Translations under genes and position numbers: made by a program
Shown here: positions 2,537 through 56,200 of the stretch, one piece after another
How the letters are laid out: each line of letters opens with the position of its first letter
Position numbering within the stretch: the stretch's first letter is position 1
The notes under the pieces: model-generated
What the model saw: only the letters and a program-made list of their open reading frames with translations
Told to the model about the DNA's origin: nothing
Databases searched by the model: none
From: Eledone cirrhosa
Taxonomy: Eukaryota
Length of the DNA stretch: 64,000 nt
Direction of reading: 5' to 3'
NCBI GenBank assembly: GCA_964016885.1
Contig: OZ024747.1
Location: 806,001-870,000 of the forward strand

Positions 2537-4489
2537 TAGTATAAGAATAAAGGAACAAAGAATCAGTGTTGCATCATTACATATTTAATAATGTGCTCAC
2601 CCAGCATACCAGTTACGAACACAATTATCTTGCACCTATACCCCTATGTATATACATATACACACACATGGTATAAATAGAAACTGATTGTGAAGGTGAT
2701 TAACACAATGTACTGTATATACACATGTTTAGTACATTATATATATATATATATATATATGGTATAAACATAGATTGTGTATAGTGTAGCATGTATACAG
2801 ATGGTATAAGGAGAGATTGATAACAAAAGTACCTGAGGTTAGCACTGGTATCAATAAGATCAACTAAAATTGTTATTACTGTTATAAGATCAACTAAAAT
2901 TGCTATTATTGTTATTACTGCTAAAGTTGAGGTGAACCTCGTGGGCCTTATAAAAGTATTCATACTGATCATGAGGGTCCATCTTCTAGCAAAGTTTTTT
3001 AATTGGATGCCTTTCTTGATGTCAGTCCTTTTAGTCACTTCTTATGACAGAGATATGGTCTACCTAAACTAGATACACACTGTTAAATAAATAGAATTTA
3101 ATATAGCTGTGATGACTGGCTTTAGGGTTGTCTCCATCTATTATTTCACATTCAAGGTCCTCATGGAAAAGAGGCCACTAGCGTTGAGTTGTATTTAGGG
3201 CATCAGCTGGCCTTCAGCCTTTTTCTCTAAATTATATATTGACAATTGACCAAGATAGTGGTATTAGAGCTTGATCTGTTAAAAATAGCAGTCAAATCTC
3301 TCTCAAATGACACAAAATAAAAAGAATACATTAGATAATGTTGTTACTGATATACAAAAAGACAAGATGGTCATGGTTGGAACATCCTTTGATTGTGGGT
3401 CTAATGAATCAGGCTTTACATGAGGTTAAACAACAATATTTTTATCACTGGGATGTAGCTTAGCTAAGGAAAAAATCTGCAAGAATTCTGTCTTTGATAG
3501 CAGAAGAAATTTGTGAGAAATTTTACAAGACATGGTGACTTGCTGATGTCAACATCTGAGTTATGATTTCTGATGCTGACACGAGAGGACGCGGAGGTTG
3601 TAGCTATAGTCAATTATGTTGATACCAGTCTATGACTGGTATATTATTTTATCAAACTAAGGAAGATAAAAGGAAAGTTAGACCTCATCAGAATTTCAAC
3701 ATAGAAGGGATGTAACTAAATACTATAATATTGAGAGAGTAGTATTACTGAAGAAATGTCTTCTGCCATTTACTTTCAGATCTTTGGATTCTAAGTTCAA
3801 ATCTAATGAAGGTAAACTTTGCTTTTCATCCTTTCAAGGGGTGTGAGAAGGAGGGATTCGCAAAAATAGTACCAGTAATACACTGGGACAATTCAACTGA
3901 CAACATTTATAAAGAACAAACATGTGAAATCATTACAATTATGTTCTTTAGCAAGGGTTCTGGTCATGCTGGAGTAACACCACAAATTATTATGAATAAT
4001 ATCATTATTATTATCTTCATTTGAATTGGCAGAATGATGAGAGCATCAGACAAAATGACTTGCAGTATTTGTTTCAGCTCCATTACCTTTTCAATTCATA
4101 CCCTGCCAAGGTGAACTCTGCCCTTTATTGTCAGATTCATTAAATAAATTTTCCATAAAAAATGCTTCGTGTGAAGTTATTATTGTTGTTGTTACAAACA
4201 AAATAGAAGAACAACAATAAATATTTGGAGAAGTTGAGATTGTTCCAATTTATTTTGATATGGCTGGGTATGTTTTCTCTGGTCTGTGGGGCAAATAGAA
4301 ATAAAATGAAACCACATTAATATATGTTTCTACATAGAAACATGCGGATGATAGTACTCAATACAAACAAGTAGAGTGGAATATTTATTCAACGCTGAAG
4401 TTTCTAATAAAAAATATAAATAAATAGAAATGAGAGCTATACTCTGCTGCCTTCGGTGCTTGATATTTGGAGTTGGGAGAAACTTGATA

Positions 4490-5502: not shown

Positions 5503-36020
<30,518 letters not shown>

Positions 36021-36517
36021 GTTGGTCTGGCACCTATTATAAAGAAACCGTTTTGAATTATGTATACATGTGTGTATATAACGTTAGAACTTACATTTAA
36101 GTTATAAAGTCTTACTATAAATGTATAGTCTTATTATATATTTGTAGAAGTAATTTGGTATGAATGCTAAGACAAACTAGATAGTAGCTCAGTTAATAGA
36201 AACAAATACATGCGTGTTTGTGTGAATTTCTAGTTGAGAAATTTTTATGTAAAATAACCAGTATTACTACCTACCTTGATAACTTGTAATCTTGAACGTG
36301 TGAATATATATATAAATTAGGATGGATTCAGTTTGAAATTAATTAAACCATTATTCAACAGTGTATTTGATGGAGTAGTAGAGTATGCTTATATTATAAA
36401 GAGTCGAGACCCGTTTCAACAGCTAGTTCCAGACTATATATTTATATATATTTATAACTGACTGCCAAGACTGGAATTGAACCATCAGCACAATTGAGGT
36501 ATGTTATACATCAATTT

Positions 36518-36588
36518 ATGTATTTTATCTGATGAGGACGTACTGAAAAAAACAGCACAGTACCTCCGAAATATATATAATAAAACAT
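36518..36588 (+). ncRNA. Minimal type-I hammerhead ribozyme candidate
   Basis: uuuuau-CUGAUGA(36529-35)-GGAcGUACUG..CAGUACcUCC-GAAA(36568-71)-UAUAUAUA|AUAAAA; intact core and palindromic loop III. Confidence 0.7.
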
Positions 36589-36854
36589 ATATTTTGATTA
36601 TGTGAATGTATCCATTTATTAATATTTTGAATAATATATATATATATATATATATTTAAACGTCTTAATAGTTTCATGTGGAGAATTAATTCTAAAGTCA
36701 GTTTTGTCTCAAGTTAAAAATTAACAATGGGGTGATGAAATATAAACATAACATTGTAATTCTGGATTGTAAAGTGAAACTTAAGATTTCCGAGAAATTT
36801 ACCCGACACATCTTTTACTTTCGATAATAAATCAAACGTTCCAACACGAGTTAC

Positions 36855-42485: not shown

Positions 42486-43922
42486 ACAGGGAATATTAAC
42501 TAAAGTGAAACTGGTCTTAACAAGAAACTAAAGCGATGAATTGGGTTCGGCTCTAATATAAAGATTTATTTGAAGCAAGTAGAAACATGAGATAATGTGG
42601 CATTTCCCGTTTACAATAGAGGTGTACGCATAGCTGGAGCAGTGGCCGTAAGGCGCTTAAAAGCTTATGGTGACCTCACCACCCCATATATAAAGATTAT
42701 GGTGACCCCACCACCCCATATATAAAGTCTGCAAAGAAAAAAAAATTTAATATAACAAATGCAATTAATTTGAATAAAATGGTGCCCCTCTTCTCTTGAT
42801 GGCATAACCATCAGCTACCTTTTCTTAACGGTTTACCCAGTCTTGAATGTAAAATATAGTTACATCAATCGTGGTACAGTTTTGACCTGATTGTGAGTTC
42901 TCGCTTTATTCTTTTAATATACTGGACGAAACCTTACTGGAAAAGACCAAAGTTGAAAGCAGGGTCTAGAATCAAGAGACCCACAACCCAACCGATCAAA
43001 AACAAGTTTTAACAGAGTTTTAACATGTTGGACTTAGGCATGTGGGTCACTTATAGGAGAAACGTGGACGGAGAGAAGCGGGATATTGCCCGAATTCTTG
43101 CAACACATGGAACTCCACTGAAAACAGTGGTCACTGAAGTCCTACAGAGACCATAGGTAGAATACCTTCCTTTACATGTAACCAATAAATACAAATAAAC
43201 TAAAGACGAGGTGTGTTCTACAACATTCTTTCTTTGTCAACTACAACCCAGCTAATAATATCTGTTTAAATGATGATTAGCTTACATATTTTTTATATGA
43301 TGCTTCATATATACAGTGGATGAATAAATATGTCTTGCTGTGATGACCATACTTATTCCAATATACGGTAAAGTGTGTTTTCTGTGTTGAGATGAAACTA
43401 AAATGTTACTTACAGAACTTAGGACAACACCAAGGGGACATAACTATAACAGACTAGTAACTTTGTTTTTACTTCTTTGTTTCGTATTCAACTTTCGCTT
43501 TTTTCGTTTATTTTTTAAATAATTTTACTTTTATTATTATTTGAGCAAAATAAAATGTAAATATTTTCATTCACAACTGAGACTATTATTTACAACAGAG
43601 TTAATCTGTACTTCACAATCTATGTGTGACCCCCACTATCAAGCGTGATCCTAATACCAACACTGTTCGTACTGCACTCTTTGTTATTTACTTATATATA
43701 TATGTATATATATATATATATATAATTATTTCTACTTTAGGCACAAGGCCAGCAATTATCCAGTGTATTACTGGTACTTTATTTTATCGACTCCGTAAGG
43801 ATGAAAGGCAAAGTCAACCTCGGCGGGATTTGAACTCAGATATAATATATATACGTGTGTGTACGTGTGAGTGATACGAAACTAAATATATCAGCTCCTA
43901 TCTAAAGCCAGTGTTGACAGGC

Positions 43923-45809
43923 ATGGAGGATTTTAGATGCAATGTATTATTAAAATCTGATACGACATTGGAAAAGAGGATAACTACATTGCTGAATCGA
44001 TTACATTTTACTGATGATGGAAGTGTAATGAAATCAGAAGATAATGTGTCAAAAATGTTTCTAGAAATTATCGAAGTACTTCAACAATTGAAACAGTATT
44101 TATCGGAGAAAGCGAATAATAATAATTGTTCGTTATTCACAGATATGAAAAGTGTTTATAGATTGTTGGATTGTTTGAGTCAGGTAAATAATTTAATGTT
44201 ACACTCAGACATCAATCGACTTGTGATCGAGTGTATTTTTAGTATATATGACTATAGTTATGTTCAACCAACAGAAACCCACACCAGGGCGTGGGCAATA
44301 TCAAAACTCCGAAACCCTTTGATGTATATAGACACTGAAAGAAAGTCAACCGTTTTTGATAATCTCGGTTTGCATACTGAATTAATCTGTGAAAACGCCA
44401 TATCAATGTTAAGGCAGTATATTCGTGATATGGAGAGAAACACCAACACGATTAACGGTAGACTTATACCAAGTGGATTATATATGGCATCTGACCAGCT
44501 TTCTGATGTCTGTTCAATATTGATTTATATTTTGCACAATTCGTTGCAGCCGCATGTTCAAATCTTGGTTGACGTATTCATGAACTATTTTTCAAAGCTG
44601 CCTTGTCCAGAGGTCGTTGTAGACTTTTACCGAAAGTTGGACAGTTTAGAAGTGGGGATATATGCCGGGAGCTTCACAGCTGCTAATGTATCTTCTCGTG
44701 GGTATCTAAGCTTTTTCAGTCGATGTAAGTTATGGACAAGTTACATGCCGAGTTTAGAACGTGAAATCTTATCATTGATCCGTGCAAACTTTGAGTGGAA
44801 TTTCAGCAGAAAACACATGGAGGGAATAATGAATTCTAGACAGTTCCCGAAAGCTTGTGCTCAAAGTACGCAGCTATTTCTGGAAACTTCAACTATATTC
44901 CACTCTATTGTCGAGAAACTAGTCGCTGTAACAAAGAAAAACATTACAGTGGCAACACATTGCGGTGGTACAGCCATTTTCAGTGTCTTGTCTGTCTTTT
45001 ATGATTGTGTTCACCGACATACAGCAGAATACAGCTTTAATGAGGACTCTTTGTCGCTTTATTCCCTGTACCCTTCGTTCTTCCATGAAATACTGAGACA
45101 ATATACCCGAATACCCTACCAGGACACATCAGGTGTCGAGAATGTGAAATATCTTTTCCAACAAATAGAAATTTGGAAGGGGTGTCATGGATTCGATCTC
45201 GTTCACGTTTGGATTCGGACGCAGCACTTTCGCTTGAAATTTATAGCCTATCTATTAAGACATGGTTTCACTGTGCCAGAAACTAACCTGGACGACTGGT
45301 TAAACACTTTACTGTGGTTCTACCAGTCTGACCTCATTTCAGCTAACTACATACACATGAAGGAGCTACTCTTCAGGTTTATGAAAGAACTGAGACAAGT
45401 ATTCTGTGAATACAGCCCTACATGGGACAACCTTAAACACATCTTGCCAGCTGCTGACAATTTTCATTCTGAGTCCGTCGTAGTCAAATCAGTTGTAGAC
45501 AGTTTGTTGTTAGCCTTTGTGCTTTACAGCAAGGTTGACCTACGTTTTGTAGACCATGTTCTACAGTTCATCACAGGTAGTGATGAAAATAATTCAATCC
45601 ACTCACACCTTGTTGTTCTTTTATCTGCTGAATCCTTACTACAGTTTGAAGCAGCAGCTACTCAAAGCAGATATGTTAGTCTCATCACATATTATAGGTC
45701 AAAGTGGAAAGAAGAAAATCATACATCTCAGGATGGCAGTTCTTTGTCCACGGTTACCCCTGCACAAATTTTGGCTGGATGTGAGGTTGTCATCAAAGAT
45801 TATTCTTAG
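43923..45809 (+). CDS. FANCC: Fanconi anemia complementation group C-like protein, single coding exon, 628 aa
   Basis: Long stop-free non-repetitive ORF; ttgacag|GCATGG acceptor plus ATG. Colinear motif matches to human FANCC recalled from memory: LWTSYMPSLEREILSL ~ LWLRHLPSLEKAMLHL; LSDVCSILI ~ LSRVCVPLI; FPKAC ~ LPQAAC; LLWFY ~ LLAFYY; VVDSLLLAFVLYS ~ LIRHLLLNFLLWA. Confidence 0.72.
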   Translation: MEDFRCNVLLKSDTTLEKRITTLLNRLHFTDDGSVMKSEDNVSKMFLEIIEVLQQLKQYLSEKANNNNCSLFTDMKSVYRLLDCLSQVNNLMLHSDINRLVIECIFSIYDYSYVQPTETHTRAWAISKLRNPLMYIDTERKSTVFDNLGLHTELICENAISMLRQYIRDMERNTNTINGRLIPSGLYMASDQLSDVCSILIYILHNSLQPHVQILVDVFMNYFSKLPCPEVVVDFYRKLDSLEVGIYAGSFTAANVSSRGYLSFFSRCKLWTSYMPSLEREILSLIRANFEWNFSRKHMEGIMNSRQFPKACAQSTQLFLETSTIFHSIVEKLVAVTKKNITVATHCGGTAIFSVLSVFYDCVHRHTAEYSFNEDSLSLYSLYPSFFHEILRQYTRIPYQDTSGVENVKYLFQQIEIWKGCHGFDLVHVWIRTQHFRLKFIAYLLRHGFTVPETNLDDWLNTLLWFYQSDLISANYIHMKELLFRFMKELRQVFCEYSPTWDNLKHILPAADNFHSESVVVKSVVDSLLLAFVLYSKVDLRFVDHVLQFITGSDENNSIHSHLVVLLSAESLLQFEAAATQSRYVSLITYYRSKWKEENHTSQDGSSLSTVTPAQILAGCEVVIKDYS

Positions 45810-49000: not shown

Positions 49001-50298
49001 GTAGCAGTGAAGTCTGATGGTAACCAGAAAGACTAAATACTGAAGGTGATTTAGTTTGATGCTGGTTAAAGGATAGAATGATGAGAGAAGAAATGGTAAG
49101 AAATTCCACAACGTTGTGAATGGCTTTGTCCTTGAGGACATTTGTGCTAAGTAAGCAAAGTGAATTTAGTTTTAAGCTGGGAACTGAAACCTCAAAGACT
49201 CCATTTGCAAGGCAACCAGTCTCTTTTATAGAGAGGTCTAAATTGTGTGTATTGAGGGGGTACACAATCTCCCCAATTATAACCCAGTTTTACTGTGAAA
49301 GAAATTTGGTGGTACAACAAAACATATTCACACAGAAAATATAAACAGAATTCAATAATTATGATCCCCTGGACAAATTGTTTCAGTAATGACAAAGGTT
49401 CTACAGTGAGGACCTTAATAAATAATTAGAATTTATTTTACGCACTGAATGAAAAAGAGGCATACATTGCCCCTGGATAACATGCTAGTTCTATTGCAAA
49501 TAACATTTTCCCTACACAAAGGTAATCAGAAGCAAATGTAGGAGTTACAATTCCCAACACACCTCCATCTCTCACCCTTCAATGAATTAAAGATTTGTAG
49601 TGTAATGTAATTTAAATGCGTTCCTCCATAGGACTGATGTACAACTTGACTTTCTAAAGAGCTGTGGCCAATATATTCCCCGCATCAGTGAATCCTCCTA
49701 TACAGGGAGTATATTCTAATAAATTCTTGTAGTTCTCTTGGGGATGTCCACTCTCTCCCTCACACACAATATAATCTTGTCCACTGGGCTATTTCAGCTC
49801 AACATAAAATATATATTCTTTTTAACAACAGCAATAACAACAGGGATGAGAGGACAATGAATGAAAAATTAGACAAATATGGGCAGAATAAATTAACATA
49901 AAAGAAAAATAAATTTCTGTTTTTGTTTCTGTAGAGTTTTTTGGATATTTCTTTTTTCGTTTGTGTGGCACAAGGCCATTATTATTATTATTATTTTATT
50001 GTCAGGGATATTCTATAGAATATGAGTATGATGAGGCACATGGCCATATTTCTTCTGTAGAGGATATATATGTGTATATGCGTGTGTGTATACATATATA
50101 TATCAGTAGTACTAAGTGAGTAAACATCACTGATGATGGATAAACATCTTGAAATACTTGTCTTGCATTCTCACATGACTACTGACATGATCACAGTTTA
50201 AAACCTTCATAGCAAGACTTATGTTTATTATACATAAACATAGTAATTCCCTTTATATATGTTGCTATTGTTACTATATATGCATGTATGTATATGTA

Positions 50299-50329
<31 letters not shown>

Positions 50330-51239
50330 TCTACTCTATATTTTTATATACCTTCTGTTTGGCAAGGAGATAAATTTGAGTAATAAACATCACTTTTTCT
50401 TCCTTTGCTAAAAGATATCTTTAGATAATCTGCATGTTACACACACATATATAGATATATACACACACACATATAGATATACACACACACATAGATACAC
50501 TCACACACACACATAGATATACTCACACACACATATATATATATACACACACACACATATAGATATACACTCACACACATATAGATATACACTCACACAC
50601 ATATAGATATACACTCACATACATATAGATACACACACACACATTTCCAAATTTTCATTTCAATTGCTACACATTTTAAGCAATATTTTCTTATATTTCA
50701 AATATTAGAAAACTAATTAAAATGATATTCCGTACATTATTAAGCAAACCCAAGAATATATTAGTAATTAATATAGCTACTGTTTTAACATCATTTTAGT
50801 TAACTTAATAAATTAATTAACAAGGACGTAGTTTTGACTAGAACACCACCATTACTTCATGTGAATTTCAAAGATAACATAATATAACATGTGTGTATGT
50901 GTGTAATTATGTAGATTTGTAGATTTTATCATGTGTTAAAAGCCATTCCAATGATTAGAAACAATCTAATTCCCATTTATCCATTTTTAACTCACAGAAA
51001 TATTTGTTATTAACCCTCACCAACACTTAGTAACTTTTTAATGAATATTCACATATTCTTCGATCTTTGAGAAAAAAAAATGGAATTTACATCTCATATT
51101 AATGCAGGTATCTCTGGTGAAAGAGGCCAAAGTCCTATGAAAAGCTATGTAAATATAAGTATCCTACACAAGAATATGGTGCTCTGCCCATCTGGAAATT
51201 CAACCTACAACCTAAAGATCATAAGTACAACACTCTAAG

Positions 51240-51518
51240 TAGTGGTGGTGGTAGTGGTAGTTGTGATGGTGGTGTTAGTGGAGGTGGTTGTGATAGTAGT
51301 AGTGGTGGTGGTGATAGTGGTAGTAGTGGTGGTGGTTGTGATAGTAGTAGTAGTGGTGGTGATAGTGGTAGTTCTGATGGTGGTTGTGATAGTAGTAGTA
51401 GTGGTGGTGATAGTGGTAGTAGTGGTGGCGGTTGTGATAGTAGTAGTAGTGGTGGTGATAGTGGTAGTAGTGGTGGTGATAGTAATAGTATCAATAGTGG
51501 TGATAGTAGTAGTAGTAA
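51240..51518. repeat. (GTG/GTA)n trinucleotide-based low-complexity repeat
   Basis: Direct reading. Confidence 0.9.
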
Positions 51519-51759
51519 TTTCTGTATTTAAAATGAAATTGATTTCTAACATTGGCCGGAAGACCAGATATGGGGGGGGGGGGGGGGGGTTAGATATAGT
51601 TGGTTCTACCTCAGTATACTACTGGTATTTAACAGGTTGACAGGTAGAGATGGCTGGGAGGTATATAGCACAAGGGTCACATAAAACTTGGATGGATTGA
51701 ACAGTTAACAAACAAGATAAACAATAAAAGTAATAAATAAATTGTCATCGTTAGTGTTT

Positions 51760-52345
51760 TATATACATACATATATATATATATATATACATACATATAT
51801 ATATATATATATACATACATATATATATATATATTATATATATATATATCAAAATAAGTAACGGAGTCAGAAACTCACGTTAGTCCCTGTACCTTGATAA
51901 ACACACACTATATATATATATATATATACATAATATATATATATATACATACATAATATATATATAATATATATATATACATAATATATATATATATTAT
52001 ATATATATACATACATAATATATATATTATATATATATACATACATAATATATATATTATATATATATACATAATATATATATTATATATATATACATAA
52101 TTGTTTCTACTTTAGGCACAAGGCCAGCAATTACCCAGTGCATTACTGGTACTTTATTTTATCGACCCCGTAAGGATGAAAGGCAAAGTCAACCTCGGCG
52201 GGATTTGAACTCAGATCGTAAAGGGACGTAACTATGCTGGGAAGCATGGCGCCCGACCCTCCACCGATACTGCCAATCCACCGCCCTTATATATATATAT
52301 ACATAATATATATATCATATACATAATATATATATCATATACATA

Positions 52346-52376
<31 letters not shown>

Positions 52377-52738
52377 ATACATAATATATATATATATTAT
52401 ATATACATAATATATATATATATTAATATATATATTATGTATATATATATATATATTATGTATATATATTTATTATGTATATATATATTAAGTATATATA
52501 TATATTTAATGTATGTATATATATATATATATATTATATATATATATATACATACATAATATGTATATATATATATATATTATGTATATATATATATATA
52601 TTATGTATGCATTTATATATATATATATATATATATTATGTATACATATATATATATATATAGTAATAATAATAAATTTGAAGACTAAAATCCAAAGAGG
52701 GCTGTTATTTTAATAAATATATATATATATATATATAC
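51760..52738. repeat. Long (TA)n/(TACA) microsatellite field with a family-A SINE inserted at 52100-52285 (minus)
   Basis: Direct reading; SINE A/B boxes on the minus strand. Confidence 0.9.
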
Positions 52739-52770
52739 AATGTTCAATATTAAATAAATGGAAACTATAT

Positions 52771-52838
52771 TTATTCTATTATATATATTTCAAGGGTACC
52801 AAAAACTTTGGTACGCTTTCATCAGATAAAATACAAAG
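52771..52838 (-). ncRNA. Minimal type-I hammerhead ribozyme candidate (mirror copy)
   Basis: Reverse complement of the plus-strand motif; TCATCAG at 52819-52825, TTTC at 52788-52791. Confidence 0.7.
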
Positions 52839-52946
52839 AGTGTTTTATAAATTTTGATCTTATCAGTTGAATTTTCTTGGGTACCCAAGAAAATTCAACT
52901 GATAAGGTATGATTTACTTGGCTATGTCAAAATTTATAAAACACTC

Positions 52947-53014
52947 TTTGTATTTTATCTGATGAAAGAGTACCAAAGTTTTTGGTACCCTTGAAATATA
53001 TATAATAGAATAAA
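52947..53014 (+). ncRNA. Minimal type-I hammerhead ribozyme candidate
   Basis: uauuuuau-CUGAUGA(52959-65)-AAGaGUACCAAA guu UUUGGUACcCUU-GAAA(52993-96)-UAUAUAUA|AUAGAAUA. Confidence 0.7.
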
Positions 53015-53264
53015 TATGGTTTTATAAATATAGTTTCCATTTATTTAATTGGTTCTACTTTAGGCACAAGGCCAGCAATTACCCAGTGCATTACTGGTAC
53101 TTTATTTTATCAACCCCGTAAAGATGAAAGGCAAAGTCAACCTCGGCGGGATTTGAATTATTTAATATCATTTAATATTATACTCCAGAAATCTGTCGAG
53201 TGCTCTGAATCAGTTATAAACATTTATATTTGTTGTATTTCCAACAAATTAAATATCCCTTCTA

Positions 53265-53298
<34 letters not shown>

Positions 53299-56200
53299 CT
53301 TGTGATTATCGTAGTCCACAAAAGGAAAAAGAACTCAATATTTATAATAGAATATTTTATAGGTAGATTTATTCCCATTCTTACAACATGGCCACAATGT
53401 TTCAGCAAAGTCTGTGTTTGCAAAGCCTCATCAGTTTAGCACAAAACTGTTTTACTGGAACATTGTGGCCATACTGTAAACATATGAATAGACTTCTCTC
53501 TCTCTCATGTATGTATATATATATATATATACAAACACACACAGATTTATAAAAGGTCTCTTGTTCAAGACATAACATTGTATTATATTAAAAATTTGAA
53601 AAGCAACAACATTAACAAGAACATTTTCAGCACCTGAGATGTTAGAGGGAACTGCATAAAATAGAAGAATGATGTGACAGATCAGTATATGCTGCTCAGA
53701 TAGATAAATAGATGTTGTTATTCTCAGAACTCTCACAAATACTTATATCTGTATAAATACATATGTAGGTGCCATCTGCTCTGTGTCACTTTCCTTCTTT
53801 CTAGTGTCAGTAAAATCAACAGCTGGATTGGTACTTTTATCAATCCAGGAAAGTTGAAAAGCAATGTTGATCTCAGTGATATTTCAACTCTGAACATAAA
53901 GAAATATGAACTGAATATTTCAAGACATTTTGTCAAATCTTCCATTGATTCTGCTGCTAATCAATGTTAACAAATATTTAAGAATTGTTAACTTTTGGGA
54001 CGAACACAAAGCCACAGATTGATAGAGGAATGGATAACAGTTAAATTGAGCCATTCCATTTAACAAGACAATAAAACTGTAGACCTCAGCAAACTAAACT
54101 ATGCCCTATATTGTAGAATGTAGAAAAAAACAGGGTAAGGAATATTGAAACCCCACAAACACATTATATATATATAATATACATATACATACATTATACA
54201 TATATATATACATATGCAAGCGTGGAAGATGGACGTTAAACGATGATGATGATACATATACATATATACACACATATATATATACATACACGAGTCCCGC
54301 ATTCAATCAGGGTTAACCACAGTTAGAAAGGTACTCAATACATTAGTAGAGTGTAAACATTATGTTTAATATAATAATATAGAAATGGCTTCTACAGGAA
54401 TAGAACTGTTTCATTCAAAAGAAATAATGAGGAAAGCCGACTGTTGTATTTATGTTTTCTGGTGGTTGGGGAAGGTGGTGATTTGGGGGTTGGGTGGAGG
54501 TCATTAGCCAAGGGATTTTAAAGAATAAGGATTCTTTGAAAAAGAAATATGTTTAGAAATATACACAATAATACAATGACACAGATAAAAGACAAGGTTC
54601 ACATTCTCCCTCACCTACCTATATATACAGGAAGCTATTCTTTAAACATTAAAGAAATAAAACCAGTTTATATGCATTGGTGAGTGAATCACTGTAGAGG
54701 CTGTAGTAGTAGTGGTAGAAGAGACAGAGAGAAGACTGTTTGCAAGCTAGTGGTTATAGTATGTTGGTGAGTGACTTATTGTAGAGGCTGTAGTAGTAGT
54801 GGTAGAAGTATGTTGGTGAGTGAATCACTAGAGAGGCTGCTGTAAGAATGGTAAACAATAACGGAGAAAAAATAGTCTATAAGGTAGTTGTGTCGTTGAA
54901 TCTTTTTAGTGAATCAGCCAGATGGTATGGGACATATGTAGTGGTATTGTGGCTCTATTATTAAGCTCACTTTGTAAGCATGACATCCCAATTTCTCTGC
55001 ATGATATCTTGGATTATAGTTGTAAATCAAAAGGAAGCCACACTGAATCTCCCTGAGAATTATATTAATGGTATTAGTGTCTGAGGAATATTCAACCACA
55101 TATAATGCAGAGGTAATTCCAATAACTCAACAACTCATTGTTAAAACTAAAGCCAGAATATATTTATTTTTAGAGAGTAACAACATCAATAAAAACCACA
55201 GCAGTGTTATATAGAGGGATATATCTACATAAGGGTAGATTTTTATGAGCAATAGCAACCTTGTGTCAGATATAGATGTATACACTTGTGTGTATGTATC
55301 TCTGTATACACACCTGTGTGTTTGACTTTCAAACCACACCCAGCATTGTTAACTTATTTTGTTGAAGCTCTATTGTAATGTTGTACTTTATTGTACCCTG
55401 TGAAAAATAAAGACCCCCACCACCATTATTATTATTATTGTGTCTTTAAAATTCTTTTTTATCTACAATGAATCTGACTTCTTATTTGTTGGTGTTATTA
55501 AAAAGAAATAGTTCTACATATTTGACTCTTGAGTTCAAGCTGGACTGATGTAAGCTTGCCCCCCCCCCCCCAATCCAAGAGTCAATAATGATTTATAATA
55601 GACACAAAGCCAACAATTTGAGGATTTGGGGGTCGATTACATTGACTCCAGTACGTAACTGGTACATCCGAAAGGATGTAAACCAAGATGACCTTGGTGG
55701 TATTTGAACTTGGAATGTAAAAAGCTATAACTGTACACCACAAAGCATTCTGCCTGACACCCTAATGATTCTGCCAATCCACTGCCCTCTGAGGGTCAAT
55801 ATCATCATCATACACCCACCTCTCCCTGCTTGCAAGGGTGGGATGGGAACTGATTCTGGCTTGATTTCTACAGCTGGATGCCCTTCCTAACACCAACCTC
55901 ATTTACAGTGTAGGCTGAGTGCTTTTTTGTTGTGGCACCTCCACGACCACTTTGCAGTGGAATGATAGGGACCCCAGTCCTATCATCTCATTTCTACAGC
56001 TGAGTAATATAAATAAAACTATATCCTTTCACTTAAAAAAACTGACTAGGTATCTACCACCTCTCCTACCTAAGAACACTTGTTTTATTGATAAACTACA
56101 GTCATAAATAATAAAACACAATAATGCTGTTCTAATTTATTCACTAGATCAGCAATTTGGAGGAGGGAAAAGTAGTTTATATTAAACTCATTGATTGCTA

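Follow-up and report, generated by a model that had tools for sequence, protein, structure and literature searches.

A head-to-head pair of hammerhead-bearing pLTRs in Eledone cirrhosa, probably a stub of a Hydra-clade Penelope-like element

Introduction

What kind of element carries a hammerhead ribozyme motif on each strand, back to back around a perfect palindrome? We addressed this question for a foldback in a 64,000-nucleotide stretch of the Eledone cirrhosa genome (contig OZ024747.1, positions 806,001 to 870,000; hereafter the window). An earlier note, made from the letters of this DNA, had read the foldback as a compact, self-contained ribozyme unit that might belong to an undescribed family derived from retrozymes or Penelope-like elements (PLEs). 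Our analysis makes it very probable that the locus is a stub of a Hydra-clade PLE, in which two short hammerhead-bearing pLTRs lie head to head in (TA)n, likely through one insertion event, with uncleaved sense RNA primed from both ends of the target. A single locus of this kind is ordinary, and its value lies in the family to which it belongs.

Results

Two inverted arms with an interrupted right half

The foldback with a hammerhead motif on both arms was confirmed in the sequence, with a descriptor match on each strand. The feature is therefore present, but the extent first given to it (52750..53048) was too narrow, as the element covers approximately 52738-53266. Comparison with other copies identifies the former right edge, 53048, as the landing point of a 108-bp repeat inside the element. 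The features are as follows.

52738..52882, minus strand: left arm, a short pLTR copy that ends at site A, without a tail, against (TA)n
52772..52833, minus strand: minimal type-I hammerhead motif, core starting at 52825, predicted cut 52780/52779
52859..52906, no strand: perfect central palindrome of 48 bp, the head-to-head junction of the arms
52883..53049, plus strand: right arm, first part of the pLTR
52907..52912, plus strand: splice-donor-like motif, putative start of a 5′-UTR intron
52951..53012, plus strand: minimal type-I hammerhead motif, predicted cut 53004/53005, with an A.C mismatch in stem II
53050..53157, presumably minus strand: a piece of an abundant repeat, 108 bp long, nested between the two copies of a 9-bp target-site duplication (53041-53049 and 53158-53166)
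53158..53266, plus strand: remainder of the right arm, comprising the pLTR end and a tail of about 92 nt, ending at site B against (TA)n
36436-36634, plus strand: third hammerhead (descriptor match at 36529), with a compensated stem II, in a solitary pLTR stub from a second family

The arms form an inverted repeat of 96 nt with 98% identity, and the palindromic element has a fold z of -27.6. The junction lies 2 nt inside the inferred transcription start, and the arms share a TA. Relative to the right arm, the left arm carries deletions of 19 nt and 14 nt, one of which removes the donor-like motif. The right arm is interrupted at 53050-53157, resumes at 53158 and continues to about 53266 when aligned with other copies, and its tail reads as the 5′ UTR of the next unit. 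The nested repeat, which we take to be SINE-like, has a second copy in the window at about 52100-52209. An assembly artefact was ruled out because the arms differ by substitutions and indels and because the structure is present at many loci.

Elsewhere in the window we observed a 644-aa single open frame with a Pfam Fanconi_C match (43875-45809, plus strand, E 1e-9), located 7 kb from the element. Decayed pieces of a DDE (Tc1/mariner-like) transposase with a weak DDE_3 match are found at 17518-18257 (plus strand), and several LINE-type RT fragments were recognised by eye (8610-10695, 27151-30784, 21227-23525 and 32663-35759).

A covarying hammerhead in both arms

In the plus-strand motif, stem I pairs 52951-52958 with 53005-53012 (8 bp, one G-U), followed by the core CUGAUGA (52959-52965), stem II (52966-52992, 11 bp and one mismatch), GAAA (52993-52996), the self-complementary UAUAUA of helix III (52997-53002) and an AUA cleavage triplet. 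The minus-strand copy differs by a single base within the 66-nt motif. This difference falls in stem II, where the minus-strand copy has the C.C mismatch found in most relatives.

A strict hammerhead descriptor, one of the checks that the earlier note had suggested, returned three motifs in the window (cores at 52959 on the plus strand and 52825 on the minus strand, and the third at 36529) and none in each of 100 dinucleotide-shuffled windows. Both of the proposed hammerheads are thus matched. The Rfam hammerhead models, also suggested there, recognised neither motif: a scan of 50000-56000 gave no hammerhead family match at E<=1, and the Rfam matches in this region were only miRNA-type hairpins below their cut-offs.

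For the analysis of covariation, 16 variants were hand-picked from 39 distinct stem II sequences, all retrieved by a core pattern that left the stems unconstrained. The core is invariant in 16/16 variants, which is partly by construction because the variants came from that pattern. Two-sided changes occur in 14 of the 19 stem pairs and 92.7% of cells are paired, a value reached by 0/500 shuffles and compared with 37-51% in slid controls; relatedness among variants inflates such counts. The assignment to minimal type-I hammerheads thus holds in these related copies, with an invariant core and covarying stems I and II, and the pattern indicates that selection acts on the structure of the motif in the parent lineages.

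The motif shares its type-I topology, long stem II, weak palindromic helix III and mostly dispersed occurrence with the minimal hammerheads of metazoan PLEs (Cervera and de la Pena 2014, PMC4209133). Unlike the conserved G-C described in the accessible part of that study, the 10.1-11.1 pair is A-U in 11 of the 16 variants (G-C in 3, unpaired in 2) and in both window hammerheads. Two further differences are the 8-bp stem I and a C.C mismatch at stem II position 4, kept in 13/15 variants while the neighbouring pairs covary. This mismatch possibly marks a tertiary or protein contact. A different type of hammerhead, with a short stem II and a CUAG loop III, was seen at two loci (L022 and L066) and comes from another repeat family.

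Arms match the pLTRs of a Hydra-clade element

A search of the 3.0-Gb genome of the same species with one arm gave 1,613 first-look candidates, of which 40 were scored. In the 30 arm loci that were read, the arm stands alone, forms an inverted pair at varying distance, or extends by more than 1 kb upstream. At one locus, a 372-aa ORF piece lies about 1.25 kb upstream of the arm on the same strand. Thirty loci were found with this ORF piece and their 1.5-kb flanks were inspected. An arm is present sense-downstream of the RT/GIY-YIG-type ORF in 14 of them, the other 16 having no downstream arm inside the 1.5-kb flank. Several carry an arm upstream, direct or inverted; at five (L039, L043, L048, L050, L063) the upstream arm continues through the tail into the ORF start. 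These results bear out the PLE origin suggested previously, together with the view of inverted pLTRs as mobile and multi-copy. Head-to-head pairs are common.

Across loci, the ORF contains RW[KR], DKT, Y[RH]DD, a CxCX5C linker and a C-terminal Y-V-G domain with CxxC and CxH. For example, RW[KR] and DKT (which replaces DKG) are found in L038 and L048, DKT is found in the 689-aa open frame of the parent PLE at L065, and the C-termini of L046, L053 and L043 contain the linker and the endonuclease CxxC/CxH around conserved E and N residues. The set RW[KR], DKT, CxCX5C and endonuclease CxxC/CxH is diagnostic of the Hydra clade (Craig et al. 2021, PMC8557442), and the ORF fits the published Hydra alignment in the supplement by eye. 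From these motifs and this comparison we assign the parent ORF to the Hydra clade and regard each arm as a pLTR of such an element. Pfam and PDB sequence searches with the ORF gave no match; in its Atlas neighbours at 0.95-0.96, part of the members bear RVT_1, GIY-YIG or HTH_animal.

The parent unit is about 2.7-3.3 kb long in two loci, and insertion into (TA)n is seen in the flanks of the head-to-head loci and in the contigs. With the Hydra clade of C-terminal EN+ PLEs the family therefore shares, besides these ORF motifs and the GIY-YIG-type domain, a hammerhead near the 3′ end and the (TA)n target (PMC8557442), and it differs by a tail of about 92 nt compared to the 30-40 bp described for PLEs in the accessible part of the same source. 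We take the hammerhead to be a conserved cis-element of the parent PLE that probably works as a dimer or with the help of a protein.

One octopus Hydra family, Hydra-1_Obim from Octopus bimaculoides, appears in that supplement; its hammerhead row differs, and a 21-nt stretch of our motif is absent from the accessible supplement text. On this hammerhead comparison we consider the present elements a new family within an already described kind of PLE structure. No paper describing this family came up in literature searches, which covered few subscription papers, nor did any on twin priming in PLEs. A Hydra ORF beside L021 was rejected as the linked ORF, as it is part of a different family that has a hammerhead of its own. 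At L036 (4874-7370, minus strand) we observed an 832-codon open frame of another Hydra-type PLE family, again with a separate hammerhead close by.

One tailed and one untailed arm

We assembled 32 head-to-head loci, comprising 21 distinct loci from the 30 best matches to the centre of our element and 11 from the one-arm search. Their outer ends are A+B in 22 loci, A+A in 2 (the right end being masked by another insertion in one of the two) and B+B in 1, and 7 loci have one arm shortened. Among classifiable pairs, 22/25 thus have one tailed and one untailed arm (P=8e-5). The same holds in other subfamilies, where a tail was found on exactly one arm in 10/10 fetched pairs (5 compact pairs and 5 more under 2 kb, out of 16 pairs counted). 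Contigs from three runs of one sample contain loose ends at both A and B that lead into (TA)n, and their depth on the pLTR is far above that on the ORF start.

This is the structure of a PLE insertion, with an inverted, 5′-truncated copy at the 5′ end and a single-ended tail. As in the insertion units described by Arkhipova et al. (2013, PMC3846280) and in the Fig. 2 legend of Craig et al. (PMC8557442), inverted pLTRs meet head to head in a junction palindrome, one end has a tail and the pLTR contains an initiator-like TCACT. Unlike those units, as far as the accessible parts describe them, the whole insertion here consists of two pLTR stubs without ORF, frequent enough for the rule at the ends to be counted.

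Such motifs are abundant. A looser core pattern ending in GAAA-UAURUA-UA has 79,446 matches genome-wide compared to 110 in the control, about one per 38 kb, in many subfamilies. Given this excess and the failure of Rfam to recognise either of the two motifs here, Rfam-based counts can miss nearly all such motifs; a giant squid annotation lists 235 hammerhead-1 hits. A count by eye over the first 100 of the 79,446 matches gave 16 head-to-head pairs of one family within 5 kb, of which 5 are below 300 bp, and same-family neighbours in these rows are mostly head to head. The second family in the window (36529) has 1,988 first-look candidates, a sharp 5′ end and inverted pairs as well.

Could the palindrome nevertheless be a dedicated non-autonomous unit, retrozyme- or MITE-like, transcribed and self-cleaving from either strand and copied whole? 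Both hammerhead motifs are intact, compact pairs are as frequent as the count above indicates, and a few centre types recur. Against this, arms also occur alone or on full elements, centres vary and the spacing between arms ranges from 0 to several kb. The centre type of our locus recurs only once among the 32, at L094, which has other subfamily bases, and the ribozyme fold is predicted to be disfavoured by 63-67 kcal/mol in read-through RNA. A MITE-like foldback would have a fixed junction and symmetric termini, whereas the centres vary here and the termini are asymmetric in 22/25 pairs. Non-LTR retrozymes are likewise non-coding, PLE-related, about 300 bp long and equipped with a type-I hammerhead (PMC7229834; bioRxiv 10.64898/2026.07.22.740005). 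Their repeats of 150-450 bp, each with a hammerhead, are defined by same-strand tandem arrays that yield circular RNA (PMC7229834), whereas the present locus is an inverted pair with one motif per strand and none of the 30 arm loci read contains a same-strand short array of the arm. We therefore regard a dedicated unit as highly improbable. The idea of a self-contained ribozyme unit finds no support, as the arms are ordinary pLTRs whose junctions vary by locus; of the suggestion of a new retrozyme- or PLE-derived family, the PLE part stands and the retrozyme part, for which tandem arrangement was to be looked for, does not.

The centres also bear on how the stub, as a PLE by-product, was made. 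Across the 32 loci they include perfect joins, short spacers and inserted or duplicated bases. Besides the type of our locus, other centre types recur in two or three loci (L096/L098/L102; L113/L116; L089/L090), and some copying of whole palindromes may have occurred. L003 and L004, on one contig, have the same palindrome junction and the same right-hand insertion, which we take to be a Helitron-like end; their resemblance is likely due to duplication.

A self-priming or fold-back origin of the palindrome, for example on an antisense template, has been proposed for head-to-head junction palindromes (PMC3846280). Several centres resemble hairpin tips with short loops, and 25 non-majority sites are common to both arms. 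However, 92 non-majority sites are restricted to one arm. Which arm reaches further at the centre differs between loci, with at least 6 examples of each kind, a pattern that simple fold-back of one cDNA does not produce. At least 6 loci combine a tail-less arm that is the longer at the centre with a tailed partner, so that neither is a plain copy of the other. Two arms from one locus resemble each other only slightly more than arms taken from different loci do, which is compatible with one RNA template or with two. Junctions, moreover, cluster at the inferred sense start site. Because of this clustering and because either arm can be longer, we favour two independent primings, with the caveat that later deletions at the hairpin tip could mimic the 'either arm longer' pattern. 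Self-priming thus appears a rather unlikely origin, roughly a one-in-four prospect.

Signals near the 5′ end and in the tail

Sense-arm 5′ ends start 46-79 nt upstream of the core in 17/28 cases, 15 of them at 65-79. The initiator-like TCACT is located at -79 from the core and, in other subfamilies, at -64 to -91 in 7 arms. Of 30 arms from other subfamilies, 23 have a donor-like GTAYGT at 26-47 nt upstream of the core, the putative start of a 5′-UTR intron. An internal promoter has been described for the Penelope element of D. virilis, along with an intron that begins 46 bp after the start (PMC2377424). Three contig sets of one sample contained no joint that skips from the donor-like site, a result with no bearing on splicing. 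We dropped an acceptor-like site in the tail as intron end, as its AG is missing in other subfamilies, where the surrounding stretch resembles a conserved small stem. Right after site A (53173-53205, plus strand) we noted a short ACTC...GAGT stem and a GAGTGC motif, which recur in tails of distant subfamilies (L167-L184) and are a candidate RT-binding or initiation element.

We also looked at the junction for a cap-like extra G. It is present in 10 of the 13 family copies that start at the inferred start, among the first 30 of 224 matches by position (hand-sorted, with 3 rows moved); the other 17 read through with a templated C. This is weak evidence because the extra G was read by eye in 0/4 cases in other subfamilies and because the partner arm can often supply a G. 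Literature searches for cap-derived G in PLEs found nothing relevant. A genome-wide count with 11-base patterns (G 5,194 compared to 616 in the control; A/T 2,798 to 3,260; C 1,615 to 2,490) was rejected as evidence, as 18/20 fetched G matches lie in the coding region of another repeat and 0/20 have a hammerhead. An abundant coding repeat, often in head-to-head pairs, was observed at L147-L166 and is probably another PLE family.

Folding of the palindromic transcript

With stems I and II enforced, the ribozyme fold in whole-element RNA costs 62.7 kcal/mol on the plus strand and 67.0 kcal/mol on the minus strand. Read-through RNA is therefore predicted to fold into a single long hairpin in which both ribozymes are buried; whichever strand is read, transcription passes through the antisense arm first. 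Accordingly, the earlier statement that a transcript from either strand could self-cleave is unlikely to apply to read-through RNA. In RNA starting at the centre, with one arm alone, the ribozyme fold costs 1.0 kcal/mol, and self-cleavage by such outward transcripts is possible. Published minimal hammerheads were not cleaved as monomers and showed low cleavage as dimers (PMC4209133).

We also considered an acquired function, in which the locus would act as a divergent promoter for two outward, dimer-cleaving ribozyme RNAs or would supply small RNAs against the family from its hairpin. Both arms start close to the inferred start site, D. virilis Penelope provides a precedent for an internal promoter (PMC2377424), one arm alone is predicted to fold the motif at the low cost given above, and the self-complementary UAUAUA suits dimers (PMC4209133). 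The locus itself has no sign of selection: the left arm has two deletions, one of which took the donor-like motif, and the right arm is interrupted by the nested repeat. It is one of very many similar insertions. An acquired function is therefore improbable, although slightly less so than a dedicated palindromic unit.

Discussion

Based on these results, we favour a PLE stub formed through priming from both target ends. The protein of the element would cut both strands of a TA-rich target, and both free ends would prime reverse transcription on a sense RNA that is neither cleaved nor spliced, within its 5′ region. Site A, about 55 nt downstream of the ribozyme cut, would be used by one end, and site B, about 92 nt beyond A, by the other, which would produce the tail. 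Both cDNAs would extend to the RNA 5′ end near TCACT and be linked there by end-joining. Copies span the predicted ribozyme cut site. The palindrome would likely be rebuilt at every insertion rather than spread as a self-cleaving unit. As a long hairpin is predicted to enclose the ribozyme in read-through RNA, the locus is likely a dead end, into which another repeat later inserted.

Several of these steps have published counterparts. The PLE protein of Anolis cuts and extends both strands, reverse transcription starts at two internal sites whose spacing equals the tail, hammerhead mutants have no effect on insertion and the protein assists hammerhead cleavage (PMC11167929). Published examples also exist of inverted pLTRs tailed on one side, of palindromes at the junction, of hammerhead pairs on opposite strands (about 100-700 bp apart in Schistosoma, PMC4209133) and of an octopus Hydra family. 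Arkhipova et al. favoured antisense-template self-priming and left unspliced sense RNA open (PMC3846280), and the formation of inverted, tailed PLE insertions was stated to be unresolved in PMC8557442.

The genome studied here offers thousands of natural insertion products and a countable rule: one tailed arm, one untailed arm and a junction at the inferred start. We give about even chances to the broader proposal that such stubs are a genomic record of PLE insertion, in which both target ends would start cDNA synthesis at two fixed internal sites in the 5′ end of sense RNA, and the transcription start would be the meeting point of the cDNAs. If true, the question of sense versus antisense template raised in 2013 would be settled and the single tail of inverted units explained. 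The ribozyme would then lie within or overlap a 5′-UTR intron, and the tens of thousands of hammerheads in this genome would have been copied from uncleaved, unspliced RNA.
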